A stretch of DNA of 21,466 nt from a virus (lineage: Duplodnaviria; Heunggongvirae; Uroviricota; Caudoviricetes). The notes beneath the pieces are model-generated. The model searched no databases and was not told where the DNA came from. It saw nothing but the letters and a program-made list of their open reading frames with translations. This document shows, piece after piece, positions 9,676 through 10,023 of the stretch; the first letter of the stretch is position 1, and each line of letters begins with the position of its first letter. The stretch is taken from IMG/VR virus record IMGVR_UViG_2703718792_000016, positions 1 to 21,466 of that record; one strand, given 5' to 3'. A program made the translations under genes and the position numbers.

Positions 9676-9704
9676 TTGCAACATTGATTTCGTAACGTTA
9701 TTAT
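9676..9704 (+). promoter_or_regulatory. candidate sigma70 promoter for the tRNA array: -35 TTGCAA, 17-bp spacer, -10 TATTAT
   Basis: Hexamers at 9676-9681 and 9699-9704, ending about 10 nt before the first tRNA. Confidence 0.4.
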
Positions 9705-9713
9705 CCTGCGCCC

Positions 9714-9789
9714 GGCCCTTTAGCTCAGTGGTGAGAGCGAGCGACTCATAATCGCCAGGTCGCTGGTTCAAATCCAGCAAGGGCCACCA
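9714..9789 (+). tRNA. tRNA with CAT anticodon, most similar to tRNA-Ile2 (lysidine, ileX/ileZ-like); Met not excluded
   Basis: 76 nt; cloverleaf with 7-bp acceptor stem GGCCCTT/AAGGGCC, anticodon loop CTCATAA, T-loop TTCAAAT, CCA encoded; close to my recollection of E. coli ileX. Confidence 0.85.
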
Positions 9790-9790
9790 A

Positions 9791-9867
9791 CCGCCACTAG
9801 CTCATCAGGAAAGAGCGTCAACCCTTTAAGTTGAGTGTGCGAGGTTCGAGTCCCCGGTGGCGGTCCA
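9791..9867 (+). tRNA. tRNA-like gene with non-canonical anticodon loop CCTTTAA (formal anticodon TTT, Lys); isotype uncertain
   Basis: 77 nt; acceptor stem CCGCCAC/GTGGCGG, T-loop TTCGAGT, CCA encoded, but C at position 33 and an A-C mismatch in the T-stem. Confidence 0.55.
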
Positions 9868-9869
9868 GT

Positions 9870-9945
9870 GCCGACTTAGCTCAGTAGGTAGAGCAACTGA
9901 CTTGTAATCAGTAGGTCACCAGTTCGATTCCGGTAGTCGGCACCA
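9870..9945 (+). tRNA. tRNA-Thr (anticodon TGT)
   Basis: 76 nt; acceptor stem GCCGACT/AGTCGGC, anticodon stem ACTGA/TCAGT with loop CTTGTAA, T-loop TTCGATT, CCA encoded; one A-C mismatch in the T-stem. Confidence 0.75.
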
Positions 9946-9948
9946 TAT

Positions 9949-10023
9949 GCGGGCATCGTATAATGGCTATTACCTCAGCCTTCCAAGCTGATGATGCGGG
10001 TTCGATTCCCGCTGCCCGCTCCA
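9949..10023 (+). tRNA. tRNA-Gly (anticodon TCC), glyT-like
   Basis: 75 nt; acceptor stem GCGGGCA/TGCCCGC, anticodon loop CTTCCAA, T-loop TTCGATT, CCA encoded; appears essentially identical to E. coli glyT as I recall it. Confidence 0.9.

Follow-up and report, generated by a model that had tools for sequence, protein, structure and literature searches.

The window analyzed here is a stretch of 21,466 nucleotides (nt) from a tailed virus (Caudoviricetes; IMG/VR record IMGVR_UViG_2703718792_000016, positions 1 to 21,466), and its subject is a compact array of four tRNA genes that follows the gene for a Q antiterminator (Table 1). The array is real, widespread, and already annotated in other genomes, and it belongs to the known family of tRNA cassettes found downstream of Q in lambdoid phages. 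Its only unusual element is the second gene, which encodes an argN-derived tRNA with a UUU anticodon and a C at position 33. A first-pass annotation, made from the letters of the DNA, had proposed four tRNAs with anticodons CAT, TTT, TGT, and TCC, spacers of 1 to 3 nt, and an encoded CCA in each gene, and all of this holds. In the 21.5-kb window, ARAGORN calls four tRNA genes and no more, each of them on the plus strand, and the Rfam covariance model RF00005 (gathering score, 29) agrees, recovering the same four with model positions 1 to 71 covered in each and with E-values, from tRNA1 to tRNA4, of 2e-14, 1e-06, 9e-15, and 3e-12, which are far beyond chance. Neither tool missed a gene or assigned another anticodon. 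The spacers are A, GT, and TAT, and CCA is encoded in all four genes. U33, the residue before the anticodon, is present in tRNA1, tRNA3, and tRNA4 and not in tRNA2. The array had also been placed in the slot of morons and toxin genes, between a Q-like gene and the lysis cassette. The position, after Q and ahead of cargo and lysis genes in the stx/moron slot, is right; what had been overlooked is a minus-strand gene for a YagU/DUF1440 membrane protein that comes before the holin gene.

Table 1. Features of the window, with positions counted from its first letter; bit scores of the tRNA genes are those of RF00005. ORF, open reading frame; sRNA, small RNA; aa, amino acids.
Feature	Position	Strand	Basis and remarks
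tRNA1	9714-9789	+	anticodon CAT; assigned as tRNA-Ile2 (ileZ); 72.5 bits
tRNA2	9791-9867	+	anticodon TTT; argN-derived; loop CCUUUAA; 44.4 bits
tRNA3	9870-9945	+	anticodon TGT; thrU copy, tRNA-Thr(UGU); 73.8 bits
tRNA4	9949-10023	+	anticodon TCC; glyT copy, tRNA-Gly(UCC); 64.9 bits
Probable dedicated tRNA promoter, TTGCAA-17-TATTAT	9676-9704	+	promoter scan; 9 nt 5' of tRNA1
GC-rich discriminator or very short leader, CCTGCGCCC	9705-9713	+	between the -10 element and the mature 5' end of tRNA1; conserved
Candidate late promoter pR', TTGCAA-17-TATATT	9488-9516	+	promoter scan; overlaps the end of Q
Predicted short pR'-tR' transcript	9521-9597	+	hairpin stem 9568-9591, then T-run TTTTTTGTG
Q antiterminator gene	8809-9504	+	PF06323, E 7e-91; phrog_304, E 1.6e-106; upstream boundary of the module
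YagU/DUF1440 membrane-protein gene (moron)	10187-11029 (as ORF)	-	PF07274, E 2.2e-37; convergent with the tRNA operon
Terminator-like hairpins	11034-11053, 11061-11082	+	past the yagU-like gene
Lysis cassette: P21-type holin, lysozyme, Rz	11415-12642	+	PF04971, PF00959, PF03245; PHROG lysis families; downstream boundary
PerC-family transcriptional regulator gene	13108-13422	+	just after the lysis cassette; RefSeq annotation of a near-identical prophage
hok/sok type I toxin-antitoxin	6626-6949	+	sok, RF01794, 101 bits; 51-aa hokD-like ORF, 6794-6949
LysR-family regulator gene	5254-6162	-	HTH_1 and LysR_substrate domains; inside the prophage early region
DicF sRNA	175-226	-	Rfam, 71.5 bits; left edge of the window; truncated dicB adjoins in the closest RefSeq relative

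What are these four tRNAs, and where did they come from? tRNA1 is identical to the ileZ gene of Shiga toxin (Stx) phages at 76/76 positions and matches host ileX at 68/76. Its acceptor stem (GGCCC.../...GGGCC) provides C4-G69 and C5-G68 pairs, which we take to be determinants for TilS. Because of the ileZ identity, the ileX-like body, and these two pairs, its sequence identifies it as tRNA-Ile2 (CAU, presumably lysidine modified) and not tRNA-Met, and the RefSeq label of the gene is likewise tRNA-Ile; of the two assignments offered earlier, Ile2 or Met, only the first survives. tRNA3 and tRNA4 are exact copies of K-12 thrU (76/76) and glyT (75/75). The identity ends at the mature termini, without homology to the host flanks, and a blastn-short search of the window found no remnants of argO, tyrU, thrT, or the host tyrU-glyT spacer and thus no trace of how the capture of thrU and glyT came about. 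The host operon, thrU-tyrU-glyT-thrT-tufB, contains identical mature thrU and glyT genes in the same order, but it also has tyrU, thrT, spacers of 8 nt and 116 nt, and its own flanks, whereas the array joins thrU to glyT by TAT. Since this thrU-TAT-glyT unit is found alone in another lambdoid prophage and its junction is present in 843/5426 complete E. coli genomes, it is to all appearances a pre-formed, mobile two-tRNA cassette. The prophage thrU copies have an invariant anticodon arm in 89 loci. Among the glyT copies, linked acceptor-stem changes, C>T (9954) and G>A (10014), occur in 10/89 loci each and look compensatory. The prophage of E. coli strain 631 carries thrU-TAT-glyT without ileZ or tRNA2 (locus L136, 2506-2659), downstream of a DUF1133 gene and an AT-rich region; its glyT copy has the linked acceptor-stem variant, and the prophage also has iteS, an anti-phage peptidase gene.

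tRNA2 requires a longer description. It had been called Lys-like, and its UUU anticodon justifies the name as far as it goes, but the gene is an argN homologue with a switched anticodon: in an end-to-end alignment it matches argN of the F349 type at 65/77 positions, and its identity to host lysT is at most 63%. It combines the UUU anticodon with C33, a C1-G72 pair, U73, A20, and an A51.C63 mismatch. The argN-type genes of 120 IMG/VR loci nearly always have UCG in the loop CUUCGAA. Of the 12 differences between tRNA2 and argN, 6 lie inside the 17-nt anticodon arm (Fisher p 0.02), and those in the stem hold or improve pairing, G30-C40 having become A-U and U27.G43 having become U-A; in addition, two acceptor wobble pairs of argN are G-C/C-G in tRNA2. 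An alignment of the tRNA2/argN family, small at seven sequences, contains three compensated pairs (7-66, 27-43, and 30-40) in which both sides changed. In it, 95.9% of the cells are paired, compared with 27 to 55% when the partner is slid, and only 1/500 shuffles reaches the observed covariation score. While its anticodon arm was being remodelled, tRNA2 clearly still functioned as a tRNA. Scanned against one genome per species, the T-arm 22-mer of tRNA2/argN had matches in E. coli and Shigella flexneri and nowhere else, which leaves no broader family for comparison. Could the loop be read in another register, for example with the anticodon UUA? By inspection, no alternative 5-bp stem with a 7-nt loop exists. 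Single-sequence minimum-free-energy folding of the four tRNAs was set aside as uninformative on tRNA2, the predicted cloverleaf being unreliable even for thrU.

By homology, then, the array derives as a mosaic from the ileZ-argN-argO cassette that Stx phages carry (933W, VT2-Sakai/Sp5, 2851, and F349). That cassette occupies the same place, with Q, pR', and tR' on its 5' side and the cargo and lysis genes on its 3' side, and it shares with the array ileZ, the argN homologue, the promoter TTGCAN-17-TATTAT plus 9 nt, and the encoded CCA. In the Stx phages, however, the second tRNA is UCG with U33 rather than UUU with C33, argO (UCU) stands where the array has its thrU and glyT copies, the spacers are 9 to 13 nt rather than 1 to 3 nt, and the cargo is stx rather than an antisense yagU-like gene. 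The earlier remark that the complement differs from ileZ-argN-argO is therefore accurate for the anticodons and for argO, and misleading if taken to mean that the two sets are unrelated. In the IMG/VR sample, 92 arrays have the architecture Ile-UUU-Thr-Gly, 12 have Ile-UUU-Arg(UCU), and 6 have Ile-Arg(UCG)-Arg(UCU); the ileZ-UUU-argO type is carried by phages Evi and PPompW. Because three architectures exist, including this intermediate, the order of events suggested is that the argN anticodon arm would have been remodelled from UCG to UUU at the ileZ-UUU-argO stage, and that thrU-TAT-glyT would later have displaced argO. The argO (UCU) gene of Stx2a_F349 (L001, 1735-1811) matches host tRNA-Lys at 59/77, argU at 56/77, and thrU at 55/77 positions, so that tRNA-Lys is its nearest relative among the host tRNAs compared. 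This similarity hints that the anticodon may have switched more than once in this cassette family.

The array is common. A prophage of E. coli 377323_2f, in which RefSeq annotates the array as tRNA-Ile, -Lys, -Thr, and -Gly, matches 84% of the window's length at 96% identity. Two GenBank phages have the array as well: PhiR47_1, annotated Met/Lys/Thr/Gly, and vB_EcoM-606R7, annotated Met/Thr/Gly with the second tRNA not called. At least 80% of the array is present in 554/5426 complete E. coli genomes (about 10%), and tRNA2 is present in 798/5426 (about 15%). The DNA around the array is far more variable than the array itself: nucleotide diversity (pi) is 0.007 to 0.03 for the tRNAs versus 0.27 to 0.29 for the flanks, and the median downstream identity to the window over 85 loci is 0.32.

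How is the array transcribed? The strong-looking promoter proposed just upstream of it, TTGCAA-17-TATTAT, is borne out by its conservation. Across 112 loci with 32 divergent upstream haplotypes, some of them unalignable elsewhere, the constant features are TTGCAN (or TTGATT), a 17-nt gap to TATTAT, and a 9-nt GC-rich stretch before ileZ. The -10 element TATTAT is in register in 105/112 loci, and TTATTATT is kept in all haplotypes shown. VT2-Sakai and Stx2a_F349, with different Q genes, have a matching element, and the homology to Stx2 phages with a different Q begins at about 9647, taking in the promoter and leaving out the Q-proximal region. The discriminator presumably likens this element to the stringently controlled promoters of tRNA and rRNA genes. 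In the Stx2 phage of Sakai, differential RNA sequencing is reported to have mapped a primary start site between tR' and stx2AB that drives the tRNAs (PMC7547250). Given the conservation across divergent flanks and this mapped start in a homologous phage, the predicted element is probably the true tRNA promoter and active in lysogens.

Upstream of it lies the candidate late promoter, with a -10-like GATATT (9530-9535) 3' of the site and 5' of a terminator-like hairpin. Weak, sub-threshold Rfam matches to the Hfq-binding prophage sRNAs isrK (22.7 bits) and isrJ (24.5 bits) span 9520-9593 exactly. From the sequence, we infer that this site and the hairpin with its T-run (9568-9597) are pR' and tR'; we go no further than that because a solved-structure search with the Q protein returned no homologue to anchor the assignment. 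The RNA of about 75 nt predicted between them may be an sRNA of the StxS/IsrK type, made as a by-product of the late promoter. It would parallel lambda 6S RNA or StxS, the latter being the precedent for a short terminated pR' RNA (PMC7547250). As the dedicated promoter sits downstream of the tR'-like terminator, expression of the array is probably constitutive as well as late. The first-pass annotation had the tRNAs transcribed late, which agrees with the readthrough proposed below but is incomplete, in that a promoter past tR' implies expression in the lysogen too. No terminator was found between tRNA4 and the 3' end of the yagU-like gene. Transcripts from the tRNA promoter may run antisense through that gene until two hairpins near 11050.

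What would such an array do for the phage? We think it probable that the four genes form one short polycistronic tRNA operon in a lambdoid E. coli prophage and that its most likely role is that of a rare-codon booster with its own promoter. In the lysogen, the sigma-70 promoter just past tR' would provide constitutive transcription, and upon induction, Q-modified polymerase coming from pR' would read through the tRNAs at a high level on replicating phage DNA. With spacers of 1 to 3 nt and encoded CCA ends, the transcript would be expected to mature by RNase P cleavage at each 5' end and exonucleolytic trimming of a few 3' nucleotides, as happens in the close-set tRNA clusters of the host and of T4. 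tRNA1, tRNA3, and tRNA4 would then raise the dosage of scarce host tRNAs that read ATA, ACA, and GGA/GGG. In K-12, thrU and glyT are single copy and ileX/ileY are two copies, and these are scarce tRNAs. The comparison of codon usage with the host that the first-pass annotation had called for was run on the window genes and a 50-kb sample of the K-12 core, with one ORF procedure for both. ATA is used 3.5-fold more often in the window (p 3e-10), ACA 2.5-fold (p 2e-08), GGA 2.1-fold (p 4e-06), and GGG 1.6-fold, which makes these codons 1.6- to 3.5-fold over-used in the phage and moron genes. The yagU-like gene and an adjacent 76-aa ORF (354 codons) have 31 ATA, 28 ACA, and 28 GGA per 1,000 codons. 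AAG (1.17-fold) and AAA (1.06-fold) are not enriched, so supplementation is plausible for ileZ, thrU, and glyT and does not fit tRNA2. The host has six tRNA-Lys genes, and five of the six were seen.

Several points weigh against the booster. As mentioned, supplementation leaves tRNA2 unexplained. The codons most enriched in the window are rare Arg codons (AGG, 4.2-fold; CGG, 3.1-fold; AGA, 2.8-fold; CGA, 2.6-fold), yet both Arg tRNAs have been lost. Codon usage is alike in loci of all three array types, so that no array has a complement fitted to the genome that carries it, and a tuning of each array to its phage was rejected on this ground. The earlier proposal that the tRNAs supplement codons of phage or cargo genes thus stands for ATA, ACA, and GGA, without extending to the UUU tRNA or to a genome-specific choice of tRNAs. 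Part of the high flank diversity comes from mosaic replacement rather than drift, so that the tRNAs could owe some of their conservation to service as recombination anchors. The published start site belongs to a homologous promoter in another phage, and the text consulted gives no exact coordinate for it (PMC7547250). Finally, expression, processing, and charging of the array, together with its benefit to the phage, are what we infer from the tRNA calls, identities, homology, promoter conservation, codon enrichment, and diversity that were observed directly.

If supplementation does not explain tRNA2, what does? It may be a decaying passenger, a former argN, deprived of its Arg anticodon, that is kept only because the operon around it is selected and that no longer takes part in translation, a possibility that we take seriously without favoring it. 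Its covariance score is well below the 65 to 74 bits of its neighbors, it has C33 in place of the near-universal U33, and the annotation of phage 606R7 omits it. An allele of at least 99% identity is found in only 279 of the 798 genomes with tRNA2; sampled alleles at 97.4% and 96.1% identity carry no PGAP tRNA annotation, and many copies are degraded alleles with a 1-nt deletion in the D stem, with U8C, or with a large deletion. In the clade with a homologous upstream region (n = 32; tRNA2 measured in its unbiased 5' 48 nt), pi is 0.026 for tRNA2, 0.0016 for ileZ, 0.004 for thrU, 0.014 for glyT, and 0.045 for adjacent non-coding DNA. With a diversity 16-fold that of ileZ and about half that of the adjacent non-coding DNA, tRNA2 is under weak constraint only, and it may be drifting toward loss. 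Such decay sits poorly with other features. The two-sided, compensated change of G30-C40 to A-U, the change of U27.G43 to U-A, and the repaired acceptor wobbles are unexpected for a dead gene. The window allele has an intact cloverleaf, G18G19, T-loop, and CCA, and no UUU-clade haplotype seen in the IMG/VR sample departs from UUU or from C33. The common stem polymorphisms C2U, C4U, and C11U preserve pairing, although overall 4/6 stem polymorphisms do so against 52% expected under transition bias, which is not significant. A low score is also typical of the lineage, since the accepted argN of the Stx2c type scores 43.0 bits (933W argN, 54.8). A present translational role for tRNA2 is, on balance, about a toss-up. 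The ileZ-UUU-argO arrays of PPompW and similar O157/O55/O111 genomes look degraded (L003, 1718-1881, PPompW_14040): their UUU tRNA lacks 1 nt of the D stem and scores under the Rfam threshold, and the 3' end of argO is CTA, not CCA.

What would charge tRNA2, if it is still in use? A UUU anticodon favors LysRS and A20 favors ArgRS, and C35 and A73 are further determinants. tRNA2 has A20 in its D-loop (AUCAGGAAA, numbered by inspection), as do argN and host argQ; position 35 is U, so the Arg-type C35 is absent, and position 73 is U, so the Lys-type A73 is absent. By these rules its identity signals are mixed, with UUU for LysRS, A20 for ArgRS, and both C35 and A73 missing. Through the retained A20, tRNA2 might have a dual Lys/Arg identity. 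C33, U73, and the A51.C63 mismatch may impair its decoding or charging.

Another speculation is that tRNA2 serves counter-defense, as a nuclease-resistant substitute for host tRNA-Lys(UUU) against PARIS AriB, PrrC/RloC, and P2-OLD, so that its non-host body, C33, and remodelled anticodon stem would protect it and translation would go on after the host tRNA-Lys is cut, while tRNA3 would add dosage of the other main target, Thr(UGU). We consider this unlikely. It has attractions, since Lys(UUU) and Thr(UGU), both among the array anticodons, are the two prime targets of AriB, which cuts at U36AAUC|A41 and whose cleavage is abolished by U39A (PMC12409363), and since P2-OLD, the classic anti-lambda exclusion factor, cuts tRNA-Lys as well as its preferred tRNA-ThrU and requires a paired CNG in the anticodon stem (PMC12445682). 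tRNA2 reads UAAGUU at positions 36 to 41, where the host has UAAUCA, and it has no CNG, whereas argN has CAG/CUG; because of these differences it is predicted to resist both nucleases. The concentration of changes in an anticodon arm that has stayed paired is in keeping with the idea, and so is the failure of supplementation to account for a Lys tRNA. Against it, tRNA3 is identical to host thrU, so that the AriB site and the CNG motif are both still there, and additional host thrU protected little or not at all against P2-OLD (PMC12445682). The prophage thrU copies, as mentioned, show no variation in the anticodon arm. tRNA2 itself is weakly constrained, most of its E. coli copies are alleles that PGAP does not call, including the D-stem deletion, and C33, U73, and A51.C63 may hurt decoding or charging. 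The match between anticodons and nuclease targets was, moreover, spotted after the fact.

The model for such evasion is phage T5, whose tRNA-Lys/Thr/Asn act against AriB, along with a coliphage tRNA-Thr(UGU) that acts against P2-OLD; the array shares Lys(UUU) and Thr(UGU) with them (PMC12409363, PMC12445682). The sequence of tRNA2 departs from that of host tRNA-Lys at and around the AriB site and is without the CNG that OLD requires, whereas tRNA3 has both motifs. Unlike the T5-type evaders, the array belongs to a temperate rather than a virulent phage, its Thr copy is host identical and predicted to be sensitive, and tRNA2 has the scaffold of an Arg tRNA rather than that of a diverged tRNA-Lys. 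Because the Thr copy is host identical, extra thrU protects little or not at all against P2-OLD, and thrU shows no anticodon-arm variation, the four genes taken together are not an evasion set of the T5 kind, and tRNA2 is the sole remaining candidate, an outside one. Equally improbable in our estimate is the bolder version, in which an Arg(UCG) scaffold was converted to a nuclease-proof tRNA-Lys(UUU) that gives the temperate phage, and possibly the lysogen, immunity to defenses that cut tRNA-Lys, such as PARIS, PrrC/RloC, or OLD.

The remaining alternatives concern the array as a whole. The tRNA genes might serve chiefly as recombination anchors, the identical 75-nt blocks promoting exchange of what lies in the cargo slot (stx, yagU, and others), with translation secondary. 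The abrupt switch from near-identical tRNAs to unrelated flanks, described above, is what this would predict, and one and the same ileZ adjoins various Q genes and various cargo, with modules (ileZ-argN type, argO, and thr-gly) reassorted. Anchoring explains neither the conserved dedicated promoter at its fixed distance nor the linked, apparently compensatory glyT changes nor the specific choice of rare-codon tRNAs, and it would be a by-product rather than a function; we regard it as rather improbable. Far less probable still is tRNA-dependent lysogeny, in which phage copies replace host tRNA genes destroyed on integration. It occurs in mycobacteriophages (PMC10865867), and host-identical copies would suit as replacements. 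Across genomes in general, however, the host thrU-tyrU-glyT operon is whole and 100% identical, 5418/5426 genomes match the query in its glyT part, and two sampled genomes that bear the junction have matches at 2 and 3 places, where the median is 1 per genome, as would be expected if the host glyT is kept beside the prophage copy. With host thrU and glyT intact, this explanation was rejected.

Several tRNA genes a few nucleotides apart in one unit are also found in T4-like and T5-like clusters and in the host's polycistronic, RNase P-processed operons. Unlike the T4/T5-like clusters, the array has four genes only, all with CCA, and lies in a lambdoid late operon behind its own promoter. tRNA cassettes downstream of Q have long been known in Stx phages, and another one leaves that picture unchanged. 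What the array does illustrate is how such cassettes evolve, by swaps of whole-tRNA modules, by a flankless, host-identical two-gene unit, and by an anticodon rewritten with its stems kept paired. If tRNA2 were charged and nuclease resistant, the idea of counter-defense by phage tRNAs would reach beyond large virulent phages to common temperate prophages, and tRNA2 would provide an example from nature of a tRNA that switched identity. Should it be inert, the array comes down to a rare-codon booster that contains a fossil.

The surroundings of the array are those of a lambdoid prophage with assorted cargo. On its 5' side the order is a DUF968/YdfU gene, rusA, and then the Q gene. On its 3' side, at the place equivalent to that of the yagU-like gene, RefSeq has a shorter YagU family protein of 187 aa, and the lysis cassette is followed by the gene for a PerC-family regulator. 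Farther upstream in the window are the DicF sRNA, the hok/sok toxin-antitoxin pair, and the gene for a LysR-family regulator, which is probably a moron, because the closest RefSeq relative has other genes at that place.

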